Part shown: positions 11,301-47,797 of the stretch, piece by piece
How the letters are laid out: every line of letters starts with the position of its first letter
Position numbering within the stretch: the first letter of the stretch is position 1
Assembly (NCBI GenBank): GCA_043228905.1
Contig: JBHGNT010000013.1
Coordinates: 8,928,001-8,992,000 of the forward strand
DNA from: Azolla caroliniana
Taxonomy: Eukaryota > Plantae > Polypodiophyta
DNA: 64,000 nucleotides
Direction: 5' to 3'
Notes under the pieces: generated by a model
The model's database searches: none
Seen by the model: the letters and a program-made list of their open reading frames with translations, nothing else
What the model was told of the DNA's origin: nothing
Made by a program: the position numbers and the translations under genes

Positions 11301-13335
11301 GATTGTGACTTGAATGTTGGGACATGCTCCATAAAGATCTTCTGTGGCCTTTGTCACCGCACGAATCTTCCATCCATGGTTTGTGTTGATAGGCCATCTT
11401 CCCTTGTTGTAGAAATCCGTCGACATGAGGTTAATCTCTGATCCGTGGTCTATAAGAGCCACAACCGTCTCTTTCTTCTCTCCAATCTTCATTGGAGTTT
11501 CCATTGCTGCTCTTGTTGGGAAATCGGTTCCTCCAGATGGGATCCGGTTATGAATGAAGTGGACCCGGTGAGAACCGAAAGAGATTTGGAAACCGGATCG
11601 GATGGACCTGGTGAGAACCGGAAGAGATCCGGAAACTGGATCGGATAGACCCAGTGAGGATCGGAAGAGGAGACATATTTGTAAATATGTTTTGAGTAAG
11701 CCTATTGAGGCTATATTTGTAAATAGCCCTAAGTTCGAATAAGTATAAATATGACTTAGGGCTATCACTTTAAGAAGTTGTAGGTTGTTGCCATATTGTT
11801 GTTGAAAACTATTGTAAAGAGAGAGAGGAGATGTAGAGTTATACTTTGTTGTAACCACTGGTTGGCGAAGATCGCGAGCACTACATCGTTGCCTCTATGT
11901 CTCCACTTTGTATTTTCCTCTCATATAGTGATAGTTCGGAGTCTGTGGGCTCCCGTGGTTTTTTCCCATTAGGGTTTTCCACGTAAACATTCTGTGTACT
12001 CTCTACTTCCCATTTCTGTGTTTCATTCTCATTGAAGTGATTCAAGACTCGGTTGTGGCCAAGCAATATTCCACGCTATTCTCAACAGCTCTCGCCCAAT
12101 GGGGTCGTGTATAATGACTGTCCATTAGATCTTCTTCTTTCTCTTCCGTTCTTGCCATAGTTATGGCATTGGTTGTCACCTTTGTCGAAATTTCCTCTTC
12201 CTCATTAGCTTGTTGTCATTTATGTTTGATAAGATCGACGATGGTCTCATGGAACTCCTTCTTTGCAATTCCAAGTATCTCTCAATGTAAGGTCAATAAG
12301 GCTATCGAGCAATGTTTCTTCAAGAACCTTTCTTAAGTTAGTTGTTTGTTCTATATCCGACCTTAATTTGTATGTTGGCGTAAATCTATCCTTCCCCTTC
12401 TTGGCATTCTCTTCAATGGGTTGAGTTGGTTCCTCGGCTCTCTTGTTTGAGCTTGCATCTTCTTGACGTGTGGTCTTGATCATCTCTTCCTTCTTCTTAA
12501 AGCTTCTTGTGTCATGTTTCTTAGAAGGGCCTTCATTTAGATCCGTCCTCTTCCGCTTCCCATCCACAAACACTTCGTGGGTTTCGCATATGACCTCTGC
12601 GGAGATCATGTTGTTATCAACCGGATCCGCTCACCCGGTAAGGTCTCATACATGAAGGTTGGCTAGCTTTGCATCATCTGAATGAATCTTCCCTTTTTTT
12701 TCGTATTCGAGGACGATCGGCCAAAACCCCGTTCCCGGTTTAATCATTCCAAGCTTCTCCTTCCCGATTCTTATACCGGAGGATGCGTCATAGTGTATAG
12801 CTTTGACGTGGCTCGCATCGGCCTCATCCATGATTTTCTTTAGACTGCCCCTACCGAAATTCACTTGCAAGGGCTTTCGAGTCTCACTTGGGTGTATAAT
12901 GTTGCCTTCCATGTAGACGAGGTTTTGTCGAATTGCCTGTTGAAGGCTAGCACAATCTTTCCTTGCATGATCAACACTATCACACCATACACATCTATAT
13001 GGGTCTTTCCCCTTCGGTCCTCTACGACTCATATTAGCTAACGAAACTGCTTCAAATTTTTGTGCCAACTCTTCAATGATAGAGTTCTCCATCACTCTTT
13101 CGGTCGGGTCACTTTGCTTTGTCATCTCAGTTGCTATTGGAGTCTTCCTTCTTTGGACTACCAGGCCCGCCATGTTGGAATCATCTAGCCATCGACGACG
13201 TTTGTCAAATCGATCACATGCTCTTCTTACTGCAACCCAATCCGTTATGAGACCATTGGATTGTGCTTCGTCCTCTAATAGACTACCTAGTTCTCGTCTA
13301 TCTTTTGCATCCACTGCCTTTAAGAAGTACAAAAC
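8331..13335 (-). pseudogene. pol: Degenerate gag-protease-RT-RNaseH-integrase, with most of RT deleted at about 10037
   Basis: 12646..13335 gag with CVWCDSVDH knuckle; ALIDHGSEINL protease; YSNRWF RT start; 8331..10037 RNase H/integrase homologous to 243..3146. Confidence 0.85.
11514..12087 (+). repeat. Copia solo LTR
   Basis: TGTTGGG...CTCAACA flanked by 5-bp TSD GCTCT; shares blocks (GAGGCTATATTTGTAAATAGCCC, TAGGGTTTTCCACG) with the LTRs at 13606 and 18385. Confidence 0.9.
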
Positions 13336-13605
13336 TGTTACCCGTTCCTTTGGGTGAACACCTTCGATAGATCTGCGGCTATCGGTCTTCAAGGGTGTGG
13401 TATGTGAAGGCTCGTAACAGAGGCGTCGAGAGAGATATAGGGCTCAGAGAGAAAACACTAGCGAGGTCTTGATAGACATGGGCGGCGTTGAACTCATAGG
13501 TATGGATCAAAGCACCGACTCATGGAGCAAAATGGGCACAAATTAGATATATTACTATGACAGAAAAGATTAGAGAACATGGCCTATGGCCGGTGACCTT
13601 ACAAG

Positions 13606-14269
13606 TGTTGGGATTACGGTCCCTCCGGATGGGATGGTCAGATGTCCGGGAATCGGGAATGAAGACCCGAATGAGGAGTACCCGGTATCGGAACCGGATG
13701 ATGAAGACCCGGTTTCGGATCCGGATGATGAAGACCCCGGCTACAGAGCCGGATGACGAATGTACCCGGAGAGAGATCCGGATGACGAATGTACCCGGAG
13801 AGAGATCCGGATGCGGGGACATATTTGTGAATATGTTTGCCAAGGGCCCTCGAGGCTATATTTGTAAATAGCCCGAAAGTCATATGTGTATAAATATGAC
13901 TTAGGGCAAACAGTTTTGTTGTTGTTGCTCATTTTTCTGTTTTCCACTTAGAGGGAGCGAAGTGAGAGCAGCCGAGAGAGAGAGTGAGAGAGAGAGAAAG
14001 GAAGAGGTCGACGCCTCTGTGTAATACCGCCGCCTATGGCGAGGACAACGAGCTCAAGGTCGTCGCCTTGCAGCTCGCCATTGTACATTCCCTGCGTATA
14101 GTGATAGTTGGAGTCTTGCACTCCCGTGGTTTTTCCCGTCTAGGGTTTTCCACGCTAAACCCTGTGCATTCGAGTCTCTCTCTGTGTTTTTTATTTTCTG
14201 CTGCATTGATTCGTGTTTCCTCGGTTTGTGGCCGAGAGGTGAAGGTTTTGAAAGCGTCAATTCCTAACA
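13606..14269 (+). repeat. 5' LTR (664 bp)
   Basis: TGTTGGG...CTAACA; has one extra 29-bp tandem unit relative to the 3' LTR. Confidence 0.95.
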
Positions 14270-14272
14270 ATC

Positions 14273-14284
14273 TGGTATCAGAGC
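14273..14284 (+). promoter_or_regulatory. Primer binding site, tRNA-iMet
   Basis: TGGTATCAGAGC 3 nt after the LTR. Confidence 0.95.
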
Positions 14285-14300
14285 GACTGCAGTGCAGAAA

Positions 14301-17300
14301 ATGGAAGGCGGCAGCAGCGGGCAGCCGGGGATGATGGTGCTGAATGCGCAGAATTACGCCGACTGGAAGATAAAGATGGAGGATCTGCTCATTGTTCGGG
14401 ACCTGTATGAACCGATCGACAGGTCAGAAATACCCAAGGGGGTACTTGAGACGGAATGGAGGCTTCTGAACCGGAAAGCCGTTGCAACCATTCGGCAATA
14501 CGTCGACGTGAGCGTTCTACAACATGTGGCGAACGACACCAACGCATATGAGATGTGGCAGAAGCTGTCGGGCCTCTACGAGAGGAAGAATGCGTTGAAC
14601 CGGACCTCCCTGATGAGGAAGATAGTGAACCTCAAGTACCGGGACGGCGAGAGTATGGTGGAACACGTAAGCACGTTCATGGGATTCGTGAACCAGCTTG
14701 CGGCGATCAAGTTCCCGTTGGAGGATGCAATGCAAGCCATCATGCTTATGTGTACATTGCCGGAAAGCTGGGAGAACTTGGTGGTGACTCTCAGCACCTC
14801 CTGCACCGAAGATAACTTGTCCCTACAAACGGTAAAGACAAGCATTTTGAACGAAGAAGCGCGTCGGAGAGATAAAGAACCGGCCTCCGATCCGAAGATG
14901 CTGCTTACCGAATCGGATCGGGGAAGACAACGGAACCGGAGTCCCCAAAGACGGGAGAAGTCGGGGACCCGGTCGCAGTCAAGAGGAAGGCCCACATGCT
15001 TCCACTGTGGGAAGCCGGGGCACTTCCGAAAGAATTGTCGGCATTACCGAAAAGACAACGGAGCCGACGACACCGATTCGAAGAAGTCTTCGGAACGGAA
15101 CGGTGCTTACCGGGGAGCCACGGACCGGAATGGTTCGGATCGGCGAGGGCAGGACTGGAAAGGAACGATGGCACTCGCGGCAAGTGAAGAGGAGATCATG
15201 CTCATCACCGAAGAAGGTGAACTAAACATTGCCGGCGATGAGACTACCTGGGTGGTCGATTCCGGAGCGTCGTTCCACCTGACCCCGGAGAGAAGATACT
15301 TCTCATCCTACACAGCCGGTGAGCATGGCTGTGTTCGGATGGGAAATGAAGGTACGTGCCGGATTGCCGGCATAGGAGACGTGTGGTTGACAACCTCGAC
15401 CGGATGCATAATGTTGCTGAAGGATGTCCGACACGTTCCGGAGGTTCGATTGAACCTGATTTCGGCCGGGAGGCTAGACGATGAAGGCTACACAGGTAGC
15501 ATCCGGAACTGCGTAATGAAGTTCAGCAAGGGGAGCCTGATAGTGGCTCGGGCCTGGAAAGTCAACACACTGTACCTTATGAATGCCTGGTTGTGTCCGG
15601 AGGAGCTGAACGTGGCAGCCGACACTGCCGATGAGCTGTGGCACAAGAGACTGTGCCACATGAGTGAGAAGGGGATGAAGAGGCTTGCAGAAGACAACCT
15701 TATTCCAGTGAAGCATGTGCACCTGGAGAAGTGCACCGATTGCCTGGCCGGTAAGCAGAACCGAACCTCCTTCCACTCAAGGCCACTGACGAGACGTAGC
15801 GCACCATTGGAGTTGGTGCACACTGACGTGTGTCAAGTAGAAACGAAGTCACATGGCGGAGCCCAGTACTTCGTGACATTCATTGATGACCACAGCCGGA
15901 AGCTGTGGACGGCACCGTTGAAGACAAAGGACCAAGTGTTGTGCGTCTTCAAAGAACTCCACGCGAGAGTGGAAAGGGAATCCGGCAAGAAGCTGAAAGC
16001 GATACGAGCGGATAACGGAGGGGAATACCGGGGGCAGTTCGAGGAGTACTGTCGCTCGAAGGGAATCCGGCTCGAGTTTACTGTGCCGAAGACGCCGAAT
16101 CTGAACGGGCTGGCCGAGAGGATGAACCGGACCATAATGGAGAGGGTCCGGAGTATGCTAGCGCATGCGAAATTACCCAAGGGGTTTTGGGCTGAGGCAA
16201 TGTCGACGGCGACATACGTGATAAACAGATCACCCTCAGTACCTTTGAACGGAGACACGCCGCAGAAAGTGTGGACCGGTAGGGAAGTATCCTACCGGCA
16301 TCTGAAGGTGTTCGGGTGTCTCGCATATGTGCATGTGGCAAAGGACCGGAGAGGAAAGCTAGATCCAAAGACCCGGCCATGCATATTCCTCGGTTACGGC
16401 GATGACGAGTTCGGCTACCGAGTATGGGACCCGGTCGACAAAAAGATATTCCGGAGTCGTGATATCATCTTCATGGAGGACAAGACACTCGCCGACTGGG
16501 AGTCGGAGAAGAAGATGAAGAGCTCCAAGTCGACCGGTGAGGATCAACTCTACGAGGAGCAGTCCCGACCGGCAAAGGACCGGTTAGCACTCGAGGATCC
16601 GGCCGAAGACGGTGAAGAAACAGAACCGGCCGAGGAAGATGAAACTGATACCGGAACCGGCCCTGATCCCGAAATGGATTCGGATGAAGAGGAAACGGAG
16701 GAGCCGGTTACCGAAGCTCCGGAACGGAGATATCCTCTAAGAGAGAGAAGGGCCCCCCGGAGATTTCCGGAACCAGAGCACGTGCTGCTAACCGACGAGG
16801 GGGAGCCGGAGAGTTTTGAAGAAGCAAAGCTTGACACCCATAGCCGCAGGTGGTTAAGTGCCATGCAGGAGGAGATGGATTCCGTGCATGAGAACCACAC
16901 ATATGAACTTGTGGAGCTGCCGAAAGGAAAGCGGGCACTTCGAAACAAGTGGGTGTTCAAGCTGAAACCGGGAGATGCCGGAAACCCCCCGAGATACAAA
17001 GCCAGGATCGTGGTGAAGGGGTTCCAGCAGAAGAAGGGCGTCGACTTCGACGAGATATTTGCCCCGGTAGTGAAGATGACCTCCATCCGGACGGTGCTGA
17101 GCATAGCGGCAAGCATGGACCTCGAGGTAGAACAGATGGACGTGAAGACGGCATTCCTTCACGGTGACCTCAAAGAAGAGATCTACATGCAGCAACCGGA
17201 AGGATTCGAGAAGAAAGGGAAGGAGCACCTGGTATGTCGGTTGAAGAAGAGCCTTTACGGACTGAAGCAGGCTCCCCGGCAATGGTACTGGAAGTTCGAC

Positions 17301-18374
17301 TCTTTCATGACCGACGAAGGGTACCACAAAACGCAGTCCGATCACTGCGTGTTTGTGAAGAAGTTCGAAGGAGGAGACTTTCTAATACTCCTCCTGTACG
17401 TGGACGACATGTTGATCGTCGGACGGGACCAGGTCAAGATACGGATGCTAAAGAAAGCGCTTCACCGAACCTTCTCAATGAAGGACCTGGGTCCGGCGAG
17501 GCAAATACTAGGGATGCACATCATCCGGGACCGGAAGAAGAAGCAGTTGTGGCTGTCACAGGAGAAGTACGTGACAAAGGTGCTTCACCGGTTCAACATG
17601 TCGGAAGCAAGACCGGTCGGGTCAACCCTCCCGGCAAACTGCAAGTTGTCCAGCAAGCAAAGCCCCAAGACAAAGGCTGAGAAGGAGGACATGATGAAAG
17701 TACCATATGCCTCTGCCGTCGGAAGCTTGATGTACGCAATGGTGTGTACAAGACCGGACATAGGATATGCAGTCGGAGTGGTGAGCCGGTACATGAGCAA
17801 TCCCGGCAAAGAGCACTGGAACGCGGCCAAGTGGATACTCCGATACCTGAAGGGCACGACAAACGTGTGCCTCCGATTCGGCTCCGGTAAGCCCAAACTC
17901 GACGGCTTTACCGATTCGGATATGTCGGCTGATGCAGATACCAGCCGGTCCACATCAGGGTATGTGATGACGTATGTAGGGGGAGCTGTTTCGTGGCAGT
18001 CGAGGCTGCAGAAGACGGTTGCGTTGTCAACCACGGAGGCGGAGTACATGGCGGCTGTTGAAGCCGGCAAGGAAATAATATGGATGAAGAACTTCATTAG
18101 AGAGCTCGGTATCCGGCAGGAGGAGTACCGACTCTACTGCGACAGTCAGAGTGCCATCCACCTTGCGAAGAACGCGGCCTATCACTCCCGGACGAAGCAC
18201 ATCCAGCGAAGATATCACTGGATCCGGGAAAGGATAGAAGACCAGGAGTTCGTGCTGACGAAGATCCACACGGACGAGAACGGGTCAGATATGCTGACCA
18301 AAGTGCTCACACCCGACAAGCTGGAAGCGTGCCGGAAGAGGGTCGGACTGGAAAGATATCCCATGCCGAAGTGA
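14301..18374 (+). CDS. Copia gag-pol polyprotein (gag, zinc knuckle, protease, integrase, RT, RNase H)
   Basis: CFHCGKPGHFRKNC, WVVDSGAS, LWHKRLCH..CTDC, LVHTD, DNGGEY, QMDVKTAFLHG, YVDDM, DSDMS, RTKHI; no internal stops; first ATG at 14301. Confidence 0.95.
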   Translation: MEGGSSGQPGMMVLNAQNYADWKIKMEDLLIVRDLYEPIDRSEIPKGVLETEWRLLNRKAVATIRQYVDVSVLQHVANDTNAYEMWQKLSGLYERKNALNRTSLMRKIVNLKYRDGESMVEHVSTFMGFVNQLAAIKFPLEDAMQAIMLMCTLPESWENLVVTLSTSCTEDNLSLQTVKTSILNEEARRRDKEPASDPKMLLTESDRGRQRNRSPQRREKSGTRSQSRGRPTCFHCGKPGHFRKNCRHYRKDNGADDTDSKKSSERNGAYRGATDRNGSDRRGQDWKGTMALAASEEEIMLITEEGELNIAGDETTWVVDSGASFHLTPERRYFSSYTAGEHGCVRMGNEGTCRIAGIGDVWLTTSTGCIMLLKDVRHVPEVRLNLISAGRLDDEGYTGSIRNCVMKFSKGSLIVARAWKVNTLYLMNAWLCPEELNVAADTADELWHKRLCHMSEKGMKRLAEDNLIPVKHVHLEKCTDCLAGKQNRTSFHSRPLTRRSAPLELVHTDVCQVETKSHGGAQYFVTFIDDHSRKLWTAPLKTKDQVLCVFKELHARVERESGKKLKAIRADNGGEYRGQFEEYCRSKGIRLEFTVPKTPNLNGLAERMNRTIMERVRSMLAHAKLPKGFWAEAMSTATYVINRSPSVPLNGDTPQKVWTGREVSYRHLKVFGCLAYVHVAKDRRGKLDPKTRPCIFLGYGDDEFGYRVWDPVDKKIFRSRDIIFMEDKTLADWESEKKMKSSKSTGEDQLYEEQSRPAKDRLALEDPAEDGEETEPAEEDETDTGTGPDPEMDSDEEETEEPVTEAPERRYPLRERRAPRRFPEPEHVLLTDEGEPESFEEAKLDTHSRRWLSAMQEEMDSVHENHTYELVELPKGKRALRNKWVFKLKPGDAGNPPRYKARIVVKGFQQKKGVDFDEIFAPVVKMTSIRTVLSIAASMDLEVEQMDVKTAFLHGDLKEEIYMQQPEGFEKKGKEHLVCRLKKSLYGLKQAPRQWYWKFDSFMTDEGYHKTQSDHCVFVKKFEGGDFLILLLYVDDMLIVGRDQVKIRMLKKALHRTFSMKDLGPARQILGMHIIRDRKKKQLWLSQEKYVTKVLHRFNMSEARPVGSTLPANCKLSSKQSPKTKAEKEDMMKVPYASAVGSLMYAMVCTRPDIGYAVGVVSRYMSNPGKEHWNAAKWILRYLKGTTNVCLRFGSGKPKLDGFTDSDMSADADTSRSTSGYVMTYVGGAVSWQSRLQKTVALSTTEAEYMAAVEAGKEIIWMKNFIRELGIRQEEYRLYCDSQSAIHLAKNAAYHSRTKHIQRRYHWIRERIEDQEFVLTKIHTDENGSDMLTKVLTPDKLEACRKRVGLERYPMPK

Positions 18375-18384
18375 AGGGGGAGTT

Positions 18385-19019
18385 TGTTGGGATTACGGTC
18401 CCTCCGGATGGGATGGTCAGATGTCCGGGAATCGGGAATGAAGACCCGAATGAGGAGTACCCGGTATCGGAACCGGATGATGAAGACCCGGTTTCGGATC
18501 CGGATGATGAAGACCCCGGCTACGGAGCCGGATGACGAATGTACCCGGAGAGAGATCCGGATGCGGGGACATATTTGTGAATATGTTTGCCAAGGGCCCT
18601 CGAGGCTATATTTGTAAATAGCCCGAAAGTCATATGTGTATAAATATGACTTAGGGCAAACAGTTTTGTTGTTGTTGCTCATTTTTCTGTTTTCCACTTA
18701 GAGGGAGCGAAGTGAGAGCAGCCGAGAGAGAGAGTGAGAGAGAGAGAAAGGAAGAGGTCGACGCCTCTGTGTAATACCGCCGCCTATGGCGAGGACAGCG
18801 AGCTCAAGGTCGTCACCTTGCAGCTCGCCATTGTACATTCCCTGCGTATAGTGATAGTTGGAGTCTTGCACTGCCGTGGTTTTTCCCGTCTAGGGTTTTC
18901 CACGCTAAACCCTGTGCATTCGAGTCTCTCTCTGTGTTTTTGATTTTCTACTGCATTGATTCGTGTTTCCTCGGTTTGTGGCCGAGAGGTGAAGGTTTTG
19001 AAAGCGTCAATTCCTAACA
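18385..19019 (+). repeat. 3' LTR (635 bp), preceded by PPT GAAGGGGGAG
   Basis: Direct repeat of the 5' LTR. Confidence 0.95.
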
Positions 19020-19213
19020 ACAAGTTTATCTAATTACGAAGGATTAAGCTAGTGCTTCCGTCTATATTTTTCTTCTCTCCCCACTTTGAGGTACTGGTCC
19101 TCGTTTAAATAACTTTTCCCCTAATACACAACCGAGCCGTCGGTGGCCCGTGATACTCGGACTCGGCATTTGCTAATTTCCTAATTTTACATTTTTGTCC
19201 TCTGGACAACACC

Positions 19214-19256
19214 TGGCACGCCCGTGGGACAGGACCTTGTCCGTCGGACCCACGAC
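19214..19256 (-). other. tRNA-Arg-like 3' half ending in CCA at the position normally occupied by the PPT
   Basis: Minus strand reads GTCGTGGGTCCGA-CGGACAAGGTCCT-GTCCCACGGGCGTGCCA-GG-TGTTG(LTR); conserved at 47317-47361. Confidence 0.7.
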
Positions 19257-19309
19257 TTACAAAATTCTAACAATATTACAAAAATTGCCTTTTAGGCGTG
19301 ATCCTCGTT

Positions 19310-22300
19310 TCATTCCTCCTTTAAGATGTCGAGGATGCTTTTGGGGTCCGAGGTGGTGGCAGGGTGGTTTTGTTGGACTGTCGGTGCGGGGGGTTGAGTT
19401 TGGTCCGGGGGTGTCATATCCTCTCGGACGTCCGCCTCAGGTGCGGCCGATTCTTCTGGTGGGGGTGTGGGTTCGAGGGTGTTGACCTCTACTTCGACTG
19501 AATCTGGTACGTGTGGGCGTCCATGGGATGTCTGTTGGCCGGGGCAAGTTCCTCCTGTGCCATGTCCGTGATCTCCTTGCTGGAAGGTTCTTCCTTCTGC
19601 TCTGTGGCCGTTGGAGGGATGGTGGGGATGGCTGCGAGTCGTTCTCGTTTGAAGGCTTCTGCGGCTGCGAGTCGTTCTCGTTCGAAGGCTTCTGCTTCCA
19701 GGCGAAACAACATCTGACCGTCATTGAAGTCCTCCATTATTTGCTCGATTGCCGCGGTGTGAGATTTTGCCAAGGACTGGTAATCCTCGGTTAAATCTGC
19801 ACGCAGGTTTTGTATGCTGGCTTCGTCCATTTTGTAGAAGCCGCGGCCCTCCTTCCGTCGGTTCTCGGCGTCGACGCGTAAAATATGCAATTCGGCAGCT
19901 TGGGCTGCCCATTCGTCTCCTGCACGACTTAATGTTTCCTTGACCTTTTTGGTAAGGTGCTGGCGCTGTTTCTCGATCAGTATTCTGATGCGTGTCTCAT
20001 CCATGCCGGGCTGTGCTCGGATGGCTGCTAATTCCTGTTTTAAGCCGTCGACCTCGGCTTGAATCTTCTGTGTTCTTAGCTCATAGATGGCTTGAGTGTT
20101 CTTTGCATCCGCGGTTACGAGCTGGAGAGCCTGCTCGTAACGCTTGGTGAGTTCTTCGGTGGCCTGCTCCCGTTCTTTTTGACACGTGGCCCGGATTTGT
20201 TCCCGTTCGACGATTCTCTCTTCTTGTAGGGCGAAGTAGGAATAAGATAATGCGTCTTTTTGCTCCGAAAGTAGCTTGCATTTGATGAAAAACTCGTCAG
20301 CCATCTCTTTAAGGGTCGTACGCTGACTCTACAGCTCGGCATTCTCCGCGTTCATCCTCTCCTCCCGTTGGTGATTTCTTTCCTCCTGCCGATGGTTCCA
20401 GTCTTTCGCATTGTCGAGCGCAGCTTGTAGGTCTAGAACCTCCTTCTCTTTCTTCACCACTGTGGTTGCGTATTCCTCCAGCTTGCTTTTGAGTTCGGCT
20501 TCTTTGCCCGCGGCTTGCGCTTGTACCCGGCCCAGTGCATCGTTCTGCTCGTGTATCCTTTGGTCGGCCTGGGCTCTAATCTCGGCCATCTGCTTGGAAG
20601 CGTCTTCTTTTAGGCGAGCCATTGCCTCTTGATGCCGTTGTTCGTGTCTCTCGGTTCGCCGTTCTTCTTCTTTAAGCTCCGCGCGGTAATCTTGGAGCGG
20701 GGGTTCTGTCTGGGTTGCCACCTCCTTGGGTGCACGAGGGGGTGGTATCTCGGTCTTTTCCATGGGCGTGGCCGCCTCGGTTGTTGTGCAGGCATCGACC
20801 ATTTGTAACGAGTCCGTTTGTGTACTGGCCTGCACCGTCAGGATTGAGTCGGTGATGGTGCTTTCATCCATCATTGTTATGCATGGAGGCGCTGGAAGGG
20901 CCTCGGTGGTCGTGACCGGAAGGCTCAAGAGTTGTTGTTCCGTCCGGTTTTGCTCCCAGGTTGCCAGCTTCTGGTTCGCAGCTTGCCATAATTCTGTAGC
21001 CATCTTAGCCTGTTTTTGGGTTATTTTTATCTTTCGGGCCATGTCTTTGGCTGCCCGCGTAGTGCGATCCAGGTCCCGATATGCCTCGATAAGGTCCGTG
21101 TTCAACTCGGGGACTTCCATGAGGAGAGCGGCCTGTTTTGCCGGCTTCTTCCTCCCGATTTTTTGTAAAGCCCTGTCCTCCTGGGGCTCAATTTCACCTA
21201 TTAACGCACGTTGAATCATTTTTGTTTCGGCGTGCTCCTCCGCCATTCGAGCGGCTGCCGCGACTTGGGCTATGGCGAGGAAGTCGACCAACTCGAATGT
21301 CGTACCAAGGCGTAGGAGCGCACTAAATTCGTAAGCCTCCGCGGGGAGGTCCTTATACCCGAGGACTTCATCCTCCGAGATCTGCGTTGTCTGCCCATGC
21401 TCGATCTTGCCTTGGTTCAGCGGTGCCTCCTCAGGGATGATTGCCAGGTTGCTCTGTCTGACAACTAAGGCTTGCTCCTGTTGTGGCTCTTTCCGTTCTT
21501 CCGAGGACTCGCGGTTGAGTCGTCTTCTCTTGCTTGGTTGTGTTTGGGGTTCCGGGGCCGGTAGTGTCGTTTCCTCCGCCTGCTTCCTTTTCTGGGGTTG
21601 TGGTGGTGCAACCTGCTATGTGTTGGGGCGTGGGCTAGGCCCTGGGGACGTTACCGAGGGGCGCGACGTTAGTTGTCGAATGGTGACGTCATCAACCGTG
21701 TTGTCTTCCGCAGCTACCTCCTCCTCCCATTCATGGCAGGTCTCGGAAACTGCCCTTTTTTGTTGGGGTTGGGTGGGTGGTGGTGCATATGCGGGCTTTT
21801 GGTCGGCAGCAGGAGGTGAAGGCAATGTGGGCTCCTCCCATGCTTCGTGGCTGATGGCAACGAATTTCTCTCTCTACCTTCGTGGTGGTGGTGGGGACGT
21901 GAGTGTGCGAGGGGAAGGAAGAGAAGAGGGTGGGTATAGAACCATCAAAAAGTGGGTAAGAACAGACAACATCTTCTTACCGGACTGAAATGAAGCTAAG
22001 GCGGCGCGGAGTCCCTCGCTTGTGATGATTCCCCAATCGATTATGTTTCCTTCATACACGCTGATGATGATGGCTGCCTTGTTCTGCGGCATGCTCGTTG
22101 GGTTCGTATGCACGAACACATACTCCATTAATATACGAGCAATCTCCCCGAAAGCTTTGTTGGGACCGCCATACATGCGATATGCCTTCCCTGAGGCTGA
22201 GTACTCACCGAAGTACGCCTTCATCTTTGATGCCGGGGGTATGTCGACCTCATGGTCCCCTCCCCGTTGCAGGTCCAAAACAGCCCGAAGCACATTGTTG

Positions 22301-22746
22301 GTGATGGCTTCGGGAGTTATACGTTTAGCCACACCTTGGGCATCTGGGTGCGGGGGGGCATCGATGATCTTCAGGTAACCGCCCATTCCTTGTTCCTGGA
22401 GCCAGGCGTGGGTTTCTGTTGAAGTGGTAAGAGGCATGGTGGAGATGGAGACGGGGTTCGACTGTGTGGAAGCGTGACGAAGAGTGATGAGGCGAGGGTG
22501 AGACACAGGAGGAACAACAGGAAGGGGAAGTCCAGCAAAGGGGTTATGAGAGCGAAACAGGGCTTGAGAGCAAGAGCGTTTAGCGCGATGAGGGCGAGAC
22601 GGGGTTTCTGAGCTTGAGAGCGATGGAGATGTGGAGCGATAATGAACTTCTATGTCTGTGCTGCGTTTTGGAAACGGTTTTAGTAACTTACTCCTAGGGT
22701 TTTGTGCCTGAAGCGAATCTTGAAGATTCTGAGTCGTGGGTGCCAT
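19310..22746 (-). pseudogene. Extra 3' ORF of family C (about 1,100 codons: globular N-domain, Pro-rich linker, long coiled coil)
   Basis: ORFs 21874..22746, 21616..21825, 20329..21291 and 19489..20304 share one frame and are separated only by TAG codons; C-terminus SILDILKEE* (another frame) is also seen at 47281-47310. Confidence 0.75.
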
Positions 22747-22948
22747 AATAAGTGACTAGCACCACGTGTCCTGAAGGTGAGTGGGGTGCTTCTAGTGCTT
22801 TGCATGTGCTTAAATAGGTACTAAATGAGTGGTGGCGAGGGGTGCTCCTAAAATTGTGGGTGCCTAGGTGGGTGGTGTAGGTGTAGCTAAACTATGGTTA
22901 ATCCTACCTACTACTATTTTTATTAATTTCAAGAAGGTGGGTGAGTCC

Positions 22949-24460
22949 TTATTCAGGGGGACACGTGGCCTCCTCCGTGGTGGCCTCCTTGTTTGTGCCG
23001 TGTGGCTCGGTAAACGGGTTGGTTGGTGTAGTCCCTCGATATGGTCGAAGTCGAAAACCATTGGCCCAACTTTTGACAGTGTCGCCAGCGAGTGTGCCGA
23101 GCTGGAACGTCCCGTTGAACTCGTCAATAATCCAGAATGGACCGGTCCACCGAAATCTTAATTTTCCCGGCATTGACCCAAGTCGTGTTTGAAAAAGAAG
23201 AACTAGTTTGCCGATGGTGAGCTCCTTCTCCAGCCCGTGTCGATGTCGATCCACGAAAGCCTTGCGTTGCCGTTGGCGTTGCTCGAGCTGGGCCATACTG
23301 TCTATCCTATCTTCGCCGAGTTCGAGGAGTTGTTCCAGCCGGTGTTGCTCGGATTGGGCCTCGGGGAGCCATGCTTTGACTTGAACTCGGAGGCTCGGGA
23401 CTTGGAACTCGACGGGCATTACGGCTTCTAACCCGAACGCCATTCGAAAGGGGGTTGATTGGATGCTTGTTTTGAAAGTCGTACGATATGCCCACAGCGC
23501 GCTCTGGAGTTTGTCATCCCAGTCGGTCCTGTTTTCATTGACGATCTTCTTCAGTATGGTTTGGAGGATTTTATTGGTCGATTCCGCCAAGCCATTCACT
23601 TGCGGGTAGTATGGTGTGCTTTTCTTGTGCACCACCGCGTAGTGGTGTGTAAGTTCACGTATTATATGATTGATGAAGTGCCCACCTTGATCACTAACGA
23701 GCTCGATTGGGCATCCGTAACGACACCAGAGATGCTCGTACACGAATTTAGCCGTGGATGCCGCCTTGTTATCTCGGAGTGCCTTAGCCTCGACCCATTT
23801 GGTGCAGTAATCCGTGGCAACGATAATATACCTATTCCTTGTTCGGGCCGCGGGTGGTTTGAAAGGGCCTACAAAAACCAAACCCCATTTTTGAAATGGG
23901 TCCAATGGAAGCATCGGCTGGTGTGGCATCCGTGACTGTTCCATTGGTTGCCCCAATCGTTGGCACAAATCGCACTGCCGGCAAAACTCGTGAGCATCTT
24001 TCATCGTTGTCGGCCACCACAATCCACTTTGCCAAACTTTCCTTGCCGTGGAATCCCCGGCATAGTGCCCCCCAGCTACTCCCTGGTGGGCTTCCTGAAG
24101 AACGGCGTTCTTCTCGAATTGCCGAATCGCTCGACGCCATATGCCGTCCGAGCCTTTGTGGTAGAGAATGTCCGAGACGAGGCAAAAATTCCGGCTACGC
24201 ACTGCTAGGCGTTTTCTCGTGTCAAGAGTCATGTGCTCGAGAGGTACATCGATAGTGAGAAAATGGGTCATCTCCGTGATCCATTCATCTCCGTTATCGT
24301 CTGGTATCGTGGTCAGGTTAAATAAGTTGGTGTCCGGTAGCTCGTCGTACGTTGTTTTCGCCGGTTCTCCTGACTCAAGACGGCTCAAGTAGTCGGCGAC
24401 GGTATGTTGTACCCCGGGTCGATGCTGAATTTGAAAATCAAACTCTTGTAGTAGGAGCAT
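22949..24460 (-). CDS. pol: gypsy pol C-terminal fragment (RNase H end + integrase)
   Basis: LLLQEFDF, AGGHY..CDLC, DQG, NGLAE, WTGPF; N-terminal part missing. Confidence 0.9.
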   Translation of the reverse strand: MLLLQEFDFQIQHRPGVQHTVADYLSRLESGEPAKTTYDELPDTNLFNLTTIPDDNGDEWITEMTHFLTIDVPLEHMTLDTRKRLAVRSRNFCLVSDILYHKGSDGIWRRAIRQFEKNAVLQEAHQGVAGGHYAGDSTARKVWQSGLWWPTTMKDAHEFCRQCDLCQRLGQPMEQSRMPHQPMLPLDPFQKWGLVFVGPFKPPAARTRNRYIIVATDYCTKWVEAKALRDNKAASTAKFVYEHLWCRYGCPIELVSDQGGHFINHIIRELTHHYAVVHKKSTPYYPQVNGLAESTNKILQTILKKIVNENRTDWDDKLQSALWAYRTTFKTSIQSTPFRMAFGLEAVMPVEFQVPSLRVQVKAWLPEAQSEQHRLEQLLELGEDRIDSMAQLEQRQRQRKAFVDRHRHGLEKELTIGKLVLLFQTRLGSMPGKLRFRWTGPFWIIDEFNGTFQLGTLAGDTVKSWANGFRLRPYRGTTPTNPFTEPHGTNKEATTEEATCPPE

Positions 24461-24466
24461 CCACCG

Positions 24467-24756
24467 CGTATAGGTATACGGGAGGGTTAAGTGTAATGTG
24501 AAAGGTGTAATGTGGAATATGAAATGTGAATGTGTGAGTGTGTGAGTGTTAGGTGAGGTAAGTAGGTGTACCTACGTCCATTCGGCTTTTTGTAAAGATC
24601 TTATATAAACCCTCACTCATGGGGCATGAAAATAGGGAATATTGAAGTTACCCACAAACTGTGTCTGTCTTGATTCTCTCTCTCTCTCTCTCTCATTCGT
24701 TCTCTCTGTGCATCTCATCTCTCCCTCTCTCCTCTCACACTCGAACCCCCTTGGGA
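24467..24756. repeat. Inverted copy of family D LTR (pairs with 26858-27164)
   Basis: About 290-bp near-perfect inverted repeat including a (CT)n/(GA)n tract. Confidence 0.85.
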
Positions 24757-26916
24757 ACGAATATTAATAGCTACCCTTATGTTTTTTTGTTTTAAATTTC
24801 TTCAGTTTGGTTTTTGAAATTTTCCATCGTGCCATCAAACTTCTGAAATTCTCGGTGATGCCCTTCCCTTTCTCTTCTTCTTTTCGGTTTCTTCATTCTT
24901 TCCTCTTTGCTCTTCTTTCTTCTCCTTCTCCCTTAGTTTTCTTGGTTCAGTCATCTCCTGCTCCATCCGGGCTGTCTCAATCGAATGTCTGTTTGTCTCT
25001 CTATGTAGGTCCTTTCTTCTTCTTCATCGTCTTTCTGATGCTCTATCTTCGTTTTCCTTTCCTTCGTCTCTTGTTGTGTGTTGTTGTTCTCTGTTTCGTT
25101 TGTCTTCGTGTTTTCATCTGCTTATAGCAACCACTACAGCTTCCATGGCTCCACTTCTTCTTCCTCTTCTTGTTCTTGATTCTTTACTTCTTTTTGGCAA
25201 AATCCTTCTTTTTGGCAAAATCCTTCTTTTTGGTGGTTGTCAACCTGATTTTCTGTTCATCAGCCAGCTGGCCGGTTGTCCGTGGCCTGTCTGTCGACTT
25301 TCTTTGTTTGATGGCCCCCATCGTCTGTTTGGCTGTCGCCTTTCTCGGTAGTAGCCGTCCACGGTCGTCGCTTGGCTCTCGGCTATCTTGGCAACCGTGC
25401 TAGTGCTTGGCCGATTGTCCCTCGGCCGCTCTTGTTGGGCCGTCTCTCGGCCTATTCTCGGTGCTCGGCTGTCGCTCTTGGCCATATATTGGTTGACACT
25501 CGACCGTTGCTCGGCTTCTTGGCCGCTTTCACCGCCATGCTTGGGCCGACTCTCTGCTTCTCGGCCATGGCTTCTTGGCCCTCTCGCAGCCGTGTCTTGG
25601 CCATATCACGGCCATTTATTTGCCGTGCTGTACTCTCGGCCGTCGCTGTCTGCCTTTCTCTGACGTCACTTGGCCAACTCTCGCAGGGTTCTCGGCCGTC
25701 ATTTGGCCGACTCTTGGCCACGTTTCTCAGCCGTACTCTCGGTTTGTCTCGTCCGTCACGCAGGGTCTCTCGCTTGGCCATCACTCGGTCGGTTCAGCCG
25801 CTACTATTCGACGGGCTCGGCCGGTTCTCTGTTTGGCTGTGACTTTCCGGCCACTTACGGGACTTTGGCCATACTCTCCGCCACTGTCCGGCCTTCTCGC
25901 GGTCGTGGTTTGGCTTCGGCTTCTCAGCCGCTTTCTCGGCTACGTCCTAGCCGTCAGTCGACCATATCTCGTAGCGATGCGCAGATGGCTCTCCGTCGTT
26001 TCTTGGCAGCTGCTTGGCCACGTCTGAACTGAAGTTCGGCTCTCAGCCGCATCTCGACCCTCTCTTTTAGTTGGTCTGGGTTTATTTGTGTCCGGTTGAC
26101 TGTCGGACGCCGATCATCTTTGTCCGTCGAACCATCTGTAGGGCCAGCCCTATCTGGTCGGCTGTCTCGGCCAAATTCTCTGGTTGTCTCAGTTGGCTTG
26201 AACTCTTCTTAGCTGCTTTCCAGGCCATCTCTCAGCCAACACTTCCTCAGTCGGCTCTTGGATTACGTTTCTGTTTTGTTCCCTTTCTCTTTTGCTTCCT
26301 CATATTCTTCCAACATGCTCCTAAGTCCATTTTTCATGAGTTGGAAAAGAACATAATACTTCCTCTTCACGACCTTCACTTCTCCATTGCTATTCACTCC
26401 CATGACTGTGTCTAGCTTCCTTTTGAAAGCCTCCATGTTTAACTTGGAGCTCCACAGTACGGAGAGAAGGCCGAAGATGCACACATACAACATAGACAAA
26501 CACCTAGAGACGTAGAGAGCTAAACACATAGAGACGAACTCTGGGGTAGCTAGGGTTTTTTTGCAGAGAGAGTAACAAAATGGGGAAATGGGGATTGAAA
26601 GGCCCTGTCCATCAGGCCTTAGATACATTAGAAATAAAAGCAAGAGAAATCTCCATTCCCATCGCAGATTGGCTCTCAATAGAGAGTCCATATACACCAC
26701 TTTTTAACACAAAGACACAAACATGCAGTGAAGGAGACAGAGAGATTAGTGATGGAGAGGGAAAAGGAGAGATAGACTTCTTCTCAAGAGGGGTAGGCCG
26801 TAGGGCGTGCCATGTGTTTATGGGTGGGGGGTGGAGCCAAGATCGGCTCCACCCCCCTCCCAAGGGGGTTCGAGTGTGAGAGGAGAGAGGGAGAGATGAG
26901 ATGCACAGAGAGAACG

Positions 26917-26959
<43 letters not shown>

Positions 26960-27172
26960 CAAGACAGACACAGTATGTGGGTAACTTCAATATTCCCTAT
27001 TTTCATGCCCCATGAGTCAGGATTTATATAAGATCTTTACAAAAAGCTGAATGGACGTAGGTACACCTACTTACCTCACCTAACACTCACACACTCACAC
27101 ATTCACATTTCATATTCCACATTACACCTTTCACATTACACTTAACCCTCCCATATACCTATACGGGTAACA
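24757..27172. mobile_element. Non-autonomous LTR element fragment (family D) with low-complexity CTCGGC-rich interior and LTR 26815-27172
   Basis: GGGCGTGCCA-TG-TGTTTA...ACGGGTAACA; LTR end shared with family C; no pol motifs; orientation ambiguous. Confidence 0.55.
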
Positions 27173-27725
27173 CCACCCCCCACCCATAAACAAAAACTTT
27201 ATCTCCTTCGAGAAGTGTTTGGTCGGTTCTCGGGAGACGGTTGTACATTTGGTCAAATTCGGTGTACACTCCCGATGTGTTCATGTTCTTCCCCTTCTTC
27301 TCGATCCACTTCATCAACGTATGACGAGTCATCCTCGACGCATTTTCAAGCATATATTCAGCCAAAAGCGCCCTTTCAAATCCCACCCATGTTATTTGGG
27401 TGGCTTGAATCTCCCTTATACGGCCTTATAACCCAATAGTTACGACACACTTGAAGCTTGATATTTGCTTCTCTTCGATGACATCACGTTGTTGGATCTC
27501 CGTCTTGTATGTAGTAGGAAAATCCGTAATGTTTCTTCCACCAAATTGGCCCGTTATCTCAATGGTTCGGTCGATGGCCTTGTCTAAACTTGCATCATTA
27601 TCTCGAGCTCTCATCATATGCGCGACAATAGCCACCAACTTTGCCACTTCATCAGCTTGGGTGTTTGACGAAGAAGCCATCTTCTAATCTTCTATTTCAA
27701 GCACTTGATCCTTCCTACCGCCTCT

Positions 27726-40114: not shown

Positions 40115-43070
40115 TGTTGGCTGTTTGCAGCCAAGTATGTAATGAGGAAAGGGTGACCCAGGTTCCGGATATATAATGATATTATTAATTATAGGAACAA
40201 ACGGATCGAGAATAGGTATGCCAATTCGGATCCGAACCGATTCGTAGTCAGTTGCCGGTTAGGCACCGTTTTGTAACATAGAACTGGTGGCCTATAAAAG
40301 GATCTGGGTATCGATGTATTAAGGGACGTAATGTTAATATAAGAAAGCTTTTTATTATATCTTGTGGATCTTTATGTTCTATTCCATTCTGCGCTCATGT
40401 ATGAATCTTATGCATGTAATTGGGGTATGTTGTGAATACGAATACCGAACCGAAAGACAACCGGTTATGGTTGTCAAGTGTTGAATGCCTTACCGTAACC
40501 ACCCTTTGGTGAAGTGTTCCGAAGGGACACCTTGTGTTAGAGGCAAGTCCAACCCAAGAGTAACACATAATTTTGGTGACCACGATTACTGCAACAAGCA
40601 GGGAACAATGGGGGGATGGATGACTAGGCCAACAAATGACCTACTTGCCGAACGAGCAAGAAGACTAGCCGAGAAACTATGGAGGTGGGTGAGGAGATAT
40701 GATTGGATCGGTCTTTTTCCAACGTGATTCAGTGGGTCGCGGAGGAGTCACTCCGGTTACAACACAATCCATACTCAGACGAAGGAAATAGTTTGAGCAG
40801 TTTGCGGAACGTGGAATCCATCCTGTAGACCCTCGCGACGGGCGAAGGAGATTCGGGGGTGTTATCGGCTATCAAATCGGATTCAGATAGGGAGCACAAC
40901 GTTCAATCCAACTATCGAAGTAGTCATGACCACCCGGAAGTCCCGGACAACGACGATTCGGAAAACCTACCAATGTTAGAACCAGAAATGACAAAACCGG
41001 CATCCCCAGTCAACGAACCAGGTTCGGACAAGCAAGTACCTATACCACCACGCAACCACTTGGAGACTCAGGAGGAACACACTTCGACACCACCACCTGA
41101 GTCACTAAAGAAACAGGAGGAGCGGGTACCGTCACCACCTCCGGCAAAACCGATAGACGACGACACACGACCATACCAGTATCCGAAATATTGGGATGAC
41201 ACGAACATGGAGGCCTACATCTGCGTCTTTCTCCAAACATGGGAAGCGAACCATGTTTCACAACGGTTGACCGAAGTAGAGGCCGAATGCTCGAAGATAG
41301 CAGAATTCAGCATGGCCTTGCAGGGACCGGCAGCACAATGGCATAACAAGCACCTTCTTGGCAACATCGCCACATTTGAAGAATTAAAGAAAAAGTTTCT
41401 GCGCTTCTTCCACAAACAGGTGGAACAAAGGGAAATCGTCAGTCAATTCTACACGACACGGCAGGACCCAACAGAAACCGTGTCACAGTTCATCATCCGG
41501 TTCTAGATGCTGCACAGTCAACTCACCAGAGCTCCGTTGGAAGAAGAATTGAAAGCAATATTTTTGTCAACGCTTTGAGAACCTCTCTGAACAATGTGCG
41601 CAGTAATAGATTTCCAAACCAACACAATAGAACAAGTCATGGACCGGGTAATGGAAATGGACAAGATAGTTCGTGGCTGTCAATGGGGGCATTCCAATGA
41701 GCACTCCCTACCGAAGAAGACCTCCGGTTTCGGCAAGCCGTACAATGCACAACGTGCCTTAACCTCAGACACTCAACGGTAGAATGCACAATGAGAGCAC
41801 AATGCATGTTATGCCATTCCCGAGCACACACAATGGACCGATGTGAATATAATCTACTAAACTGACAGGTGGCAACAGTCTGCAAGATCGAACCCTGGAC
41901 CGAGTGGCAAAACGACGACGAATGGTTCAAGTGCGAGGACTGATACTGACCAATACAAGAGATCCGATACGATAGACGGGAGTATGATTGGGATCGTAGG
42001 GATAGGAGCCGAGAATACAACTGTGATAGGTATGATCACGATTATTCCCTTGACTATAATAGAAGAAGGGATGACCAATGAGGAGAATATGTAGATTCGG
42101 ATAGGCGCCCCTCAAACCGATAGGGACATCGGAACAACCAACTCCATAATTGGAGGAGAAAGTTACGTGACCAACTTTTAGTCCGGTAACCCGAAAAGTG
42201 TATTGTTACTACTGCCGGCAAGACAGACACTATAGTAGTCAGTGCCTGGTCAAGACCAACGAGAAACAATTGGCAATGAATATGGTGATTGCGGAGTTGG
42301 CTGACATTCAGCATGTCACCACTCAATCGAAAGGAAAAACGGCAGAATGGGAGGCTCAAGAAGCAATCCGGAAACAGGCCACTGAATGGATAGAAAAAGG
42401 CGAACGAACGGAACGCGACCGAATTACGAGAACAAATGAAACATCTGGAGGAACAAACAGAGACCATGGACGAGAATCCAATGTGGCAGGCATTACAAGA
42501 CTGCCATATTATGCTACCACTGGGGCGTCTGCTGCAATTAGTGCCCCGGTTCACGGGCGGTCTGAAATCGGGATTGGCCCCACAAAACCCCACACCGGCT
42601 TTGACATTCTTTCGAATCCGGAAGAAGGACCGGCCGTCGTGGACACCAGCAACCCGAGAATCATAGTCATTGTCAAAGGACGTGAAGTACCGGGAACAAT
42701 CGTGGACGGAGGATTGGGAGTGAACGTAATTAGCCAACGTACATGCGATACGTTGGGGATCTAGGAATGGGAACCATGCCCATTCTGGCTCCGGATGGCT
42801 GATATTAGTTCGGTCCGGCCAACCGGGTTGATCCGGGACTTGGAGGTCACAATTGGCTGACATGCATTCAGGATATCCACAGTGGTGCTGCAGCTAAATG
42901 CACAAGGAGCATATCTCTTGTTGCTAGGAAGACCATGGTTGCAGACGACACACATAAAATAGAATTGGCAGAGGAATATCATCACTTTCTAGCGTGGCAA
43001 AGCCAAAGTGCGAGTATCGACACACCCATGAATGGGCGCTAGTAAGGAGTGGACGCCACTATATCTAGAA
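40115..43070 (+). mobile_element. Family C 5' part: LTR 40115-40565, PBS 40574-40583, degenerate gag-protease
   Basis: TGTTGG...GTAACA; TGGTGACCAC (tRNA-Arg-type); gag 40859..41506; TIVDGGLGVNVI. Confidence 0.8.
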
Positions 43071-43840: not shown

Positions 43841-44388
43841 ACGGTGTACCCGAAAAGTACTGTTTTTGACCACAAAAATTGTTAGTACTTTCGATATTGT
43901 TAGTACTGAATAATTCAGAAAAAAAAATCAGAGAAAAAAAAAATCTACTTTGGAGAGTGGGGTGACTGTAGTACAAGTGTCCTTTACTACAAGGAGTGGG
44001 GGGAACACGTGAGGAGATGTTCTTTCCATTTTGGGGGCTATTTTCCCCTCACGTCGATTTTGGCGCTTCCCCTCATACTCCCCTTCCTCTTTCCCTCTGA
44101 GCTCTTCAACTCAGACATCCATGTCACGTTTCTGTTTTTCCTCCAATCTAAGAGTTTTGTTATGGTTTAGGGAGCAAATCTCAGACATCCATGTCAGGTT
44201 AGAGCTTTTGAGTTGAGGATTTCTGGTTTTTTTAGGGTTTTGTTTTTGTTAGGGTTTAGGTTGAGGAACAAAGATTGTTCTGAGGCCTCTTATAACAGCC
44301 AATAGTGACTTCTTCGACAACGACTTTCTTACTTCCACCGATTGTGGTTTATGTCGTGGTGATTTGGGGCTTTTTCCATCGAGGTGAG

Positions 44389-44769
44389 GATCCTTCCACC
44401 GAATCCAGGCGGCATATCACAAAGATTCAAGGCGCCCTTCACCATTGGAGGTTCCTTCCACTAAATCAAGGCGGCATATCACCAAGATTCAAGGCGCCCT
44501 CCACCATTGGAGGTTCCTTCCATTAAATCAAGGTGGCATATCACATAGATTCAAGATCCCTCCACTATTGGAGGTTCCTTCCACCAAATCGAGGCGGCAT
44601 ATCACATAAATTCAACGCTCCCTCGACCATTTGAGGTTCTTTCCAGCAAATCGAGGCGGCATATCACATAAAATCAACGCTCCCTCCACCATTTGAGGTT
44701 CCTTCCAGCAAATCGAGGCGGCATATCACACAGAATCAACGCTCCCGCCACCATTGGAGGTTCCTTCCA
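44389..44769. repeat. About 62-bp minisatellite, about 6 copies
   Basis: Unit GTTCCTTCCACCAAATCGAGGCGGCATATCAC...CCCTCCACCATTGGAG, head-to-tail with no spacers. Confidence 0.9.
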
Positions 44770-44991
44770 TCCATTTTTTTATTTTCAGGACTAAAAATTT
44801 TCATTTCTTCATTTTTTAGTACTAAATTTTTAGATTTTACAATTGTCATATTTGATCCATAATTCTAATGTTCGAAACGAATTATTTCTCACTTTGCAGG
44901 CCACATTTAAAAACATCTGACTGCGTTTTCTTAGTGTAGTCTATATAACATTAACTACTCTCGCCGGACACTTAATTTTTTTGGTGACCAA

Positions 44992-46612: not shown

Positions 46613-46833
46613 GTAATTTTTAATCCATATGTTTAGTACTTATCATGCAATGTGTAAGGAAGTAATTCTTGTGTTAGTGCATGCATACTAATTATGTTTG
46701 TAACTATTCACACAGTACTATTCACATGGATGCATACTAATTATGTTTGTAACTATTCGAACACATCACTATTCACATGGATGCATGCATACTAATTTTT
46801 TTTGTAACTAAGTTAACTGTTCTTGATTGTACT

Positions 46834-47797
46834 AAGTCATCGTCTAGCTGGATACACAACTCCAGCTCGAGTAGTATGAACGAGAACGACGACGGCACAA
46901 AGTGGTCCAAAGAATTGCGGCGATCAACATCAGTGATGAAGAGCAGTCTTCGGCATAGCTGCCTAATGAAGCCGGAATGGGGGCAAGCCAACCATATGGA
47001 ACTCAGGAGGAGAAGGCAAACGTAACTTCGGAGGTGCAGCTGAAAGATGGAAACCGGCACACGCGGTGCATGTCGGACAACAACACCAAGAGATGCAAAG
47101 ACCAGTAGAGACAAAAAAAGAAGAAGAGCCGGTAAGACCAACAGAACCGCTGGAAACTAAAGTCAAGTAGAAGCAACCATAGTTGGTGTTCCGAAGCCGG
47201 GGCAATAACAGGAGGAGGAACAACATCAACAACAGATGATTGAACAACTTCCCAAGGAACCATTTGAACCCTTAGATCAAAGCATTCTGGACATTTTGGA
47301 GGAAGAATGAAGGCTGGATCATGGGATTCGACGTACAAGGTATTGTCCCACGGGCGTGCCATGTGTTAGACGGTCGGCAAGGAGAGTTCAGAGTGGGAAA
47401 AGGGGGATAATTAATAATTGGGATCTGATTATCTATAATATTTAGAAGGATATTTTGAGAAGTGAACGGACGGACCGGAATTGGTATGCCAATCCGGATT
47501 CGGACCGGTTCGTAGCCGGTTGCCGGAGACCTATAAAAGGGCCCGGTTAGATTATAATCATTAGCGGATAATTCATAGAGTGTTGTTTTTCTATATCTTA
47601 ATCAGTGTTAATTACCATTCTGTGTTAAGTGTAATTCATCTTACGCGTGTATTGTGACAAATGATCTTGCCCATTAGTAACCAATTAGGGTTTCATTAAT
47701 AGTTCAGTCTAAGTTTATCTCACCACAACACCCGTTTGGTGAAGTGTCTCAAAGGGACACCCTGTGTTAGGGCATTGTCCGGCCCCTAGCGATAACA
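46834..47797 (+). mobile_element. Family C 3' end: extra-ORF tail, tRNA-like motif (47317-47361) and 3' LTR 47364-47797
   Basis: SILDILEEE* at 47281-47310; LTR homologous to and co-oriented with 40115-40565. Confidence 0.75.

Follow-up and report, generated by a model that had tools for sequence, protein, structure and literature searches.

A tRNA-Arg(UCU)-like cassette in place of the polypurine tract in a Ty3/gypsy clade: a candidate site for plus-strand priming by a second tRNA

Results

The cassette in the window

The window, the 64-kb stretch of DNA analysed here, is a nest of plant LTR retrotransposons. It contains a 17-mer at 19214–19230 on the minus strand and at 47345–47361 on the plus strand, each copy located 2 nt upstream of an LTR, and these two exact copies account for all matches in the window at up to 3 mismatches, against a chance expectation of 0.12. 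On the minus strand the first site reads GTC-GTGGGTCCGA (19253–19244)-CGGACAAGGTCCT (19243–19231)-GTCCCACGGGCGTGCCA (19230–19214)-GG-TGTTGTCC, with the LTR starting at 19211. The features of the two cassettes are:

19244–19253, minus strand: 5′ block of the first cassette (GTGGGTCCGA), tRNA nt 49–58, with C at position T55
19231–19243, minus strand: 13-nt insert between tRNA nt 58 and 59, a 4-bp stem with a 3-nt loop, co-varying among families
19214–19230, minus strand: 3′ block, tRNA-Arg(UCU) nt 59–76 including CCA, with one C absent at the junction of T-stem and acceptor stem
19212–19213, minus strand: GG spacer of 2 nt between the CCA and the TG of the LTR
47317–47361, plus strand: second cassette, family D, with a GTAC/GTAT stem, preceded by the tail of the family D extra ORF
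47364–47797, plus strand: family D 3′ LTR, starting with TG right after the spacer of the second cassette, with unrelated flank beyond

The original prediction had described the sequence at 19214–19256 as lacking a purine run before the LTR, with a divergent second copy that keeps the 17-mer 2 nt from the LTR TG, and both descriptions were confirmed, neither window copy having a polypurine tract (PPT). No tRNA genes were found in the 64-kb window by ARAGORN, and an Rfam search of 19100–19400 gave chance-level matches only.

The remaining parts of the element carrying the first cassette, and of its neighbours, are:

13336–13605, minus strand: family B 3′ LTR, second part, ending in GGGTAACA, with an AAAAC flank at 13331–13335
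13606–19019, plus strand: Ty1/copia element inside the 3′ LTR, with an ACAAG duplication on each side, a site for primer binding (PBS) together with a normal PPT
19025–19211, minus strand: family B 3′ LTR, first part
19489–22755, minus strand: extra ORF after pol, in three pieces in the window, a single 1194-aa ORF in contig L066, belonging to no Pfam family
22949–24466, minus strand: end of RNase H and integrase, the window element being broken at 24466, inside pol
24467–27192, minus strand: piece of a second family (family A), with its LTR at 27192–26815, a true 5′ PBS at 26812–26803 and AAAAC at 27193–27197
40115–40583, plus strand: family D-related 5′ LTR with its own 10-nt PBS at 40574–40583 and gag from 40829

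The LTR of the first cassette is thus split, starting at 19211, interrupted by the copia element and ending at 13336, and contigs joining the LTR halves across the copia site were present in three of four sequencing runs. The PBS of the copia element is presumably of the tRNA-Met type. As had been predicted, the integrase and the extra ORF both point toward the LTR at 19211.

A target-site duplication check revealed AAAAC on both sides of a composite insert, 13336–27192, which combines two families. An inverted partial LTR lies at 24467–24756 within the family A piece. At its 27192 end the insert begins with the final 20 nt of the family A LTR in inverted orientation, both insert ends resembling LTR right ends, and a second inverted LTR piece adjoins the broken integrase. 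The insert may be an aberrant cDNA produced by template switching between co-packaged RNAs. Contigs of family A (L006 and L036) gave no pol match. They belong with L010, L077 and window positions 26815–27192 to a short family with a unit of about 2.3–2.5 kb and no pol match. This family shares the cassette and has a PBS of 10 nt, suggesting that non-autonomous elements retain the signal.

Other elements in the window served as controls. Both the copia element and a Phygy-like family have purine runs adjoining their 3′ LTRs, as normal PPTs. An ORF at 45681–46616, beside a 62-bp tandem array at 44324–44801, gave no Pfam match and in our view resembles a DNA-transposase remnant. The separate gypsy element at 52284–59204 has a CCGG duplication, a normal PPT and a PBS which we take to be of the tRNA-Trp type. 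This element fits the moss lineage Phygy as tabulated in PMC6317226.

Orientation of the elements

Read on the opposite strand the motif gives CA-NN-TGG, the ordinary layout of a PBS, and the orientation of the elements is therefore the crux of the analysis. Metagenome contigs were searched for the 17-mer followed by 1–3 nt and TGT, which gave 117 loci with 121 sites; 114 of the 117 loci came from one numbered assembly series and therefore probably from one host lineage. Matches to family proteins were found at 48 sites, and at 47 of these every match was on the motif strand, the extra ORF or integrase lying upstream in 44 and gag downstream of the LTR in 6. The latter six probably reflect collapsed LTRs and indicate the polarity of the LTR rather than tandem elements. 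No gag was found on the strand opposite the motif among the pattern sites.

The most complete order was obtained from contig L066, a high-coverage contig that may merge several copies: unrelated flank, 5′ LTR, 5-nt spacer, 13-nt PBS, 1797-aa gag-pol in an intact reading frame, the 1194-aa extra ORF, then the cassette with its GG spacer, and finally the beginning of the 3′ LTR. The end of its 5′ LTR matches the end of the window LTR. The motif-bearing LTR is accordingly the 3′ LTR, and not the 5′ LTR of a reversed element. The LTR at 40115 had been proposed as evidence of the orientation. This holds for the second copy, whose LTR at 47364 is homologous to it; the LTR at 19211 has no detectable homology to it, and the orientation of the first copy is instead settled by L066, L016 and L022.

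The motif could also be read as a normal 5′ PBS belonging to an element in reverse orientation, or as an artefact of nesting or assembly. Such a reading is invited by the textbook PBS layout of the other strand, by the heavy nesting of the window and by a third, partial motif match at 26803–26812, which is the true 5′ PBS of family A and shares the first 10 nt. Short-read contigs also collapse LTRs, and one of the 48 sites, L062, has an extra-ORF match on the opposite strand. This match lies 1.8 kb away, beyond a breakpoint where the contig leaves the family sequence. In L066 and in a second element, L118, the other LTR is followed by its own PBS and by gag; together with the unrelated flank before the L066 5′ LTR and the consistent strand of gag, this already contradicts the reading, which we consider extremely improbable.

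A normal PPT before the 3′ LTR was absent from the full-length or near full-length copies L066, L050 and L118 as well as from both window copies; in loci selected by the pattern this absence arises by construction, L118 having been found without use of the motif. In the assembly series the TG occupied precisely +3/+4 at all 118 sites, the search having allowed 1–3 nt, with a repeated TG leaving the 2-nt register ambiguous in 44 of them. The boundary between cassette and LTR is fixed by the LTR pairs of L066 and L118. Clustering of the 96 LTR starts that were of sufficient length for comparison gave 23 clusters.

Three pattern loci from sources other than the series (L061, L080 and L112) contain no cassette and look like chance matches. 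L040 was considered as a cassette on a different pol lineage and was rejected, as its pol ends in a PPT and LTR of its own, making it a nested element. Viral contigs contained neither the motif nor a relative of the integrase; a looser pattern gave 16 loci in these contigs, none with a retroelement match and many within collagen-like repeats.

Comparison with tRNA-Arg(UCU)

The motif had been predicted to match plant tRNA-Arg(UCU), and a full-length tRNA-Arg(TCT) with CCA at the contig end was indeed identified in a related contig (L002:1190–1265; ARAGORN; Rfam 71 bits), this reference coming from a single low-coverage contig and possibly not being that of the window's own host. The L002 tRNA is antisense to the element and fused straight onto the extra ORF's tail; it is a host gene or a reverse-transcribed primer, possibly the whole primer tRNA copied by reverse transcriptase. 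The cassette corresponds to nt 49–76 of this tRNA minus one C, with an insert after nt 58. Among 78 distinct sites the insert is 13 nt in 60 and 14 nt in 12. The 5′ block, which lies outside the search pattern, matches tRNA nt 49–58 at 8.3 of 10 positions compared to 4.2 for a control window over the same 78 sites. At T-loop position 54, 72 of the 78 sites have T, and at position 55 either T or C is present in 75 of them; both positions thereby still pair with the tRNA in trans. In the predicted duplex with the tRNA, calculated with RNA parameters as a proxy, the 5′ block adds approximately 8.5 kcal/mol over shuffled upstream sequence at 76 of 78 sites. Some recurring families have a decayed version of the block (AAGGG, TTGGG, TTCACC), and L059 lacks it.

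Summed contig depth in four sequencing runs peaks sharply on the cassette among the rows listed, depth here not being copy number, and the only position of the 17-mer varying in at least 3% of these rows was 19223, a CpG. The insert has four stem versions, GTGC/GCAC, GGAC/GTCC, GGGC/GCCC and GTAC/GTAC, and 92.3% of insert stem cells are paired compared to 73.7% when shuffled (68 rows; L059, L061 and L080, which have no cassette, were left out, 3 of 69 distinct rows). As the rows are related, the co-variation of the hairpin amounts to a few independent changes only. The cassette is real, conserved and structural.

The same cassette is found in families with different 5′ PBS, TGGCACGCCCGGT, TGGCGACCACG and TGGCGACTCCGCTGGGGA, and is therefore not the partner of the PBS of its families. 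The PBS following the 5′ LTR is 10–13 nt with spacers of 2–8 nt in families A, B and D, and 18 nt in L118. The 13-nt PBS of family B matches tRNA-Arg(TCT), and follows the real tRNA rather than the one-C deletion of the cassette; the other two PBS types are presumably also tRNA-Arg. The 5′ PBS of families B and D (window 40565–40574; L009, L066) lie 5–8 nt from the LTR end and are only 10–13 nt, whereas the 3′ site is 2 nt from the LTR and much longer. Two tRNA-Lys calls were made by ARAGORN downstream of a cassette-bearing LTR (L029:1062–1137 and 2756–2828).

A relative identified by integrase similarity

A search of genome contigs using the integrase only gave two loci: L119, a distant match, and L118, whose integrase is 54% identical. 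The L118 contig was filed in a bacterial genome bin and is evidently plant-derived, being plant-like over its first 22 kb. The element in it is complete: its LTRs are 93.4% alike, its 18-nt PBS belongs to a different type, and in the target-site duplication check its flanks match at only 3 of 5 positions. Before its 3′ LTR there is no PPT; the order is a tRNA-like 5′ block, an 8-bp hairpin, 13 of 16 terminal tRNA nt including CCA, a 2-nt spacer and TG, the 3 of 16 mismatches being counted against the one available tRNA (L002) and not that of its own host. The site also lies within an open frame. At L118:7157–14491 pol and the extra ORF form one in-frame fusion (2444 aa). The breadth of the cassette beyond one assembly series is given by the single element L118, and the counts above follow family ancestry.

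Classification of the family

Both L066 and L118 contain gag followed by RT-RH-INT between two direct LTRs. Named relatives of the integrase occur in Adiantum, Riccia, Pinus and Tanacetum, with identities of about 35% to Tanacetum RT-domain polyproteins, which we take to be Athila-type. The host is presumably a moss or some other plant outside the seed plants. An integrase tree of 52 rows (45 of 120 listed homologues and 7 of our own, REXdb references standing outside it) placed L118, the window family and three Adiantum proteins in one clade (99/99), apart from the Tanacetum and Pinus rows.

The Tat elements (TatI-III, Ogre, Retand) have an archaeal RNase H; no such domain was matched by Pfam at E values up to 0.1 in the L066 and L118 polyproteins. 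The PBS of Athila elements is mostly tRNA-Asp, Asn or Ala, whereas that of family B matches tRNA-Arg(TCT). Phygy and Selgy have a 4-bp duplication, a tRNA-Trp or Ala PBS and no extra ORF, in contrast to the long extra ORF and Arg-type PBS of the present family. In common with the OTA superclade (Athila, Tat), as described in PMC6317226, the elements have the order gag-PR-RT-RH-INT, an extra ORF after pol, a tRNA-type PBS and a putative 5-bp flanking duplication; they differ in having the tRNA cassette in place of the PPT. On these sequence features the elements are classed as non-chromovirus gypsy elements related to the OTA group that fit neither Tat, typical Athila nor Phygy.

Possible roles of the cassette

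The CCA of the cassette ends exactly where a plus-strand primer must end, approximately 2 nt before the LTR. On balance we favour the interpretation that a second host tRNA-Arg primes the plus strand on minus-strand DNA, at a split copy of tRNA-Arg(UCU) nt 49–76 in the position of the PPT. Such priming would explain the identity of the cassette to the tRNA through the T-loop, its independence from the type of 5′ PBS and its split layout. Observations against it include the degraded or absent 5′ block in some families, the location of the L118 site in an open frame, the bias of stem-base variants described below, and a single contig from run X10 in which an LTR right end and spacer are joined directly to the cassette complement, giving the appearance of a cassette copied to where the PBS lies.

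The hairpin bears on another candidate, in which RNase H would cut the genomic RNA after the CCA and spare a tRNA-like fragment as a structured, non-purine PPT, with no second tRNA involved. No further component is required for this, and the 2-nt geometry would be identical. The co-variation of the inner hairpin agrees with it, as do the variants at the stem base on the sense strand, where G-U exceeds A-C by 9 to 1 as expected for RNA folding; decay of methyl-C could also account for this bias. PPTs are themselves highly conserved, so conservation alone does not discriminate between these readings. The outer pairs resembling the T-stem are lost with no compensatory change in 24, 22 and 7 of the 68 rows, the 3′ side being fixed by the search, and the tRNA-like arm is predicted with a probability above 0.5 in just 35 of 78 sense RNAs. 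Self-priming of this kind also leaves the tRNA identity through the T-loop unexplained, and overall appears possible but rather doubtful. The original prediction had offered both a host tRNA annealed to minus-strand DNA and a folded RNA mimic, and the sequence leans towards the former.

The cassette could alternatively have a different task, as a minus-strand self-primer, in circularisation by pairing with the 5′ PBS or as a tRNA-fragment decoy, with plus-strand synthesis beginning at a nearby primer that went unrecognised. The last 10–11 nt of the cassette in families A and B are complementary to their own PBS, and the X10 joint places the cassette complement at the position of a PBS. Family D and L118 carry the same cassette with different PBS, so minus-strand self-priming fails for them, and the fidelity of the family B PBS to the real tRNA is a further point against this. 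The cassette moreover occupies the whole zone where the plus-strand primer must end, and purine runs of at least 10 nt are located 56–86 nt from the LTR, except for a microsatellite in L059. A different task of this sort is thus improbable.

Discussion

For priming by a second tRNA-Arg the following sequence of events can be proposed, in which all steps after annealing are inferred. RNase H would clear the genomic RNA from the minus-strand DNA, allowing tRNA-Arg to pair in two blocks, the first of 11+6 bp around a bulged C and the second of up to 10 bp with the 5′ strand of the T-arm, while the 13-nt insert would loop out of the minus-strand DNA. Reverse transcriptase would then add the 2 spacer nt followed by the LTR, after which removal of the tRNA would fall to RNase H and trimming of the 2 nt to integrase. 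RNase H also takes an RNA primer on DNA as its substrate, a point against this route, and the bulge or the hairpin might, at a guess, protect the tRNA primer from it. The site is likely to have arisen as an inverted copy of an LTR end and an extended PBS.

In the canonical replication of LTR elements (Ty3 and HIV-1, and the copia and Phygy-like elements of the window) the primer likewise ends approximately 2 nt before the LTR TG and a normal minus-strand PBS is present, but the plus strand is primed from an RNase H-resistant PPT, whereas the corresponding site here is pyrimidine-rich, structured and nearly identical to a host-type tRNA. For the minus-strand priming of Ty1, PMC3592414 describes split contacts between tRNA and template that reach past a 10-nt PBS. 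The Ty1 site (PBS with Box 0 and Box 1) and the extended or bipartite PBS of Ty3, as given in that source, resemble the cassette in having separate blocks of tRNA contact past the acceptor stem. Ty1 and Ty3 carry the tRNA complement in their genomic RNA and use it for the minus strand; in the present elements the genomic RNA has the tRNA's own sequence, and therefore only the minus-strand DNA can bind the tRNA. Tf1/Sushi, Tcn1 and TAR, which according to PMC6317226 self-prime the minus strand from the 5′ LTR, offer a parallel to the cleaved, folded genomic RNA considered above.

PMC6317226 and PMC3592414 take the PPT as the usual primer for the plus strand in LTR retroelements, and the variation in priming known from them concerns the minus strand; PMC5014426 and PMC11963269 likewise describe ordinary PPTs. 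A scheme with two tRNA sites was presented originally as one not known to be described, and no description of a tRNA site replacing the PPT was found in the full-text literature searched, a corpus that takes in a minority of subscription papers and does not extend to PMC6317226 Additional files 1 and 3, where such elements might be listed. The motifs are absent from five supplementary files of PMC6317226, and a search of the literature for the motif sequences returned unrelated matches only.

Taken as a whole, the sequence comparisons tilt somewhat towards a moss and fern Ty3/gypsy clade that lacks a PPT and in which host tRNA-Arg would prime both strands, the second at a split, hairpin-interrupted site on minus-strand DNA, a mode not known to be described for LTR retroelements and retroviruses. 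That an abundant clade combines intact reading frames with the lack of a PPT shows that the plus-strand step has another solution, under either of the two leading mechanisms. Annotation tools relying on PBS and PPT for the orientation of elements are likely to call these elements backwards. What reverse transcriptase and RNase H require in a plus-strand primer can be tested directly in this clade.
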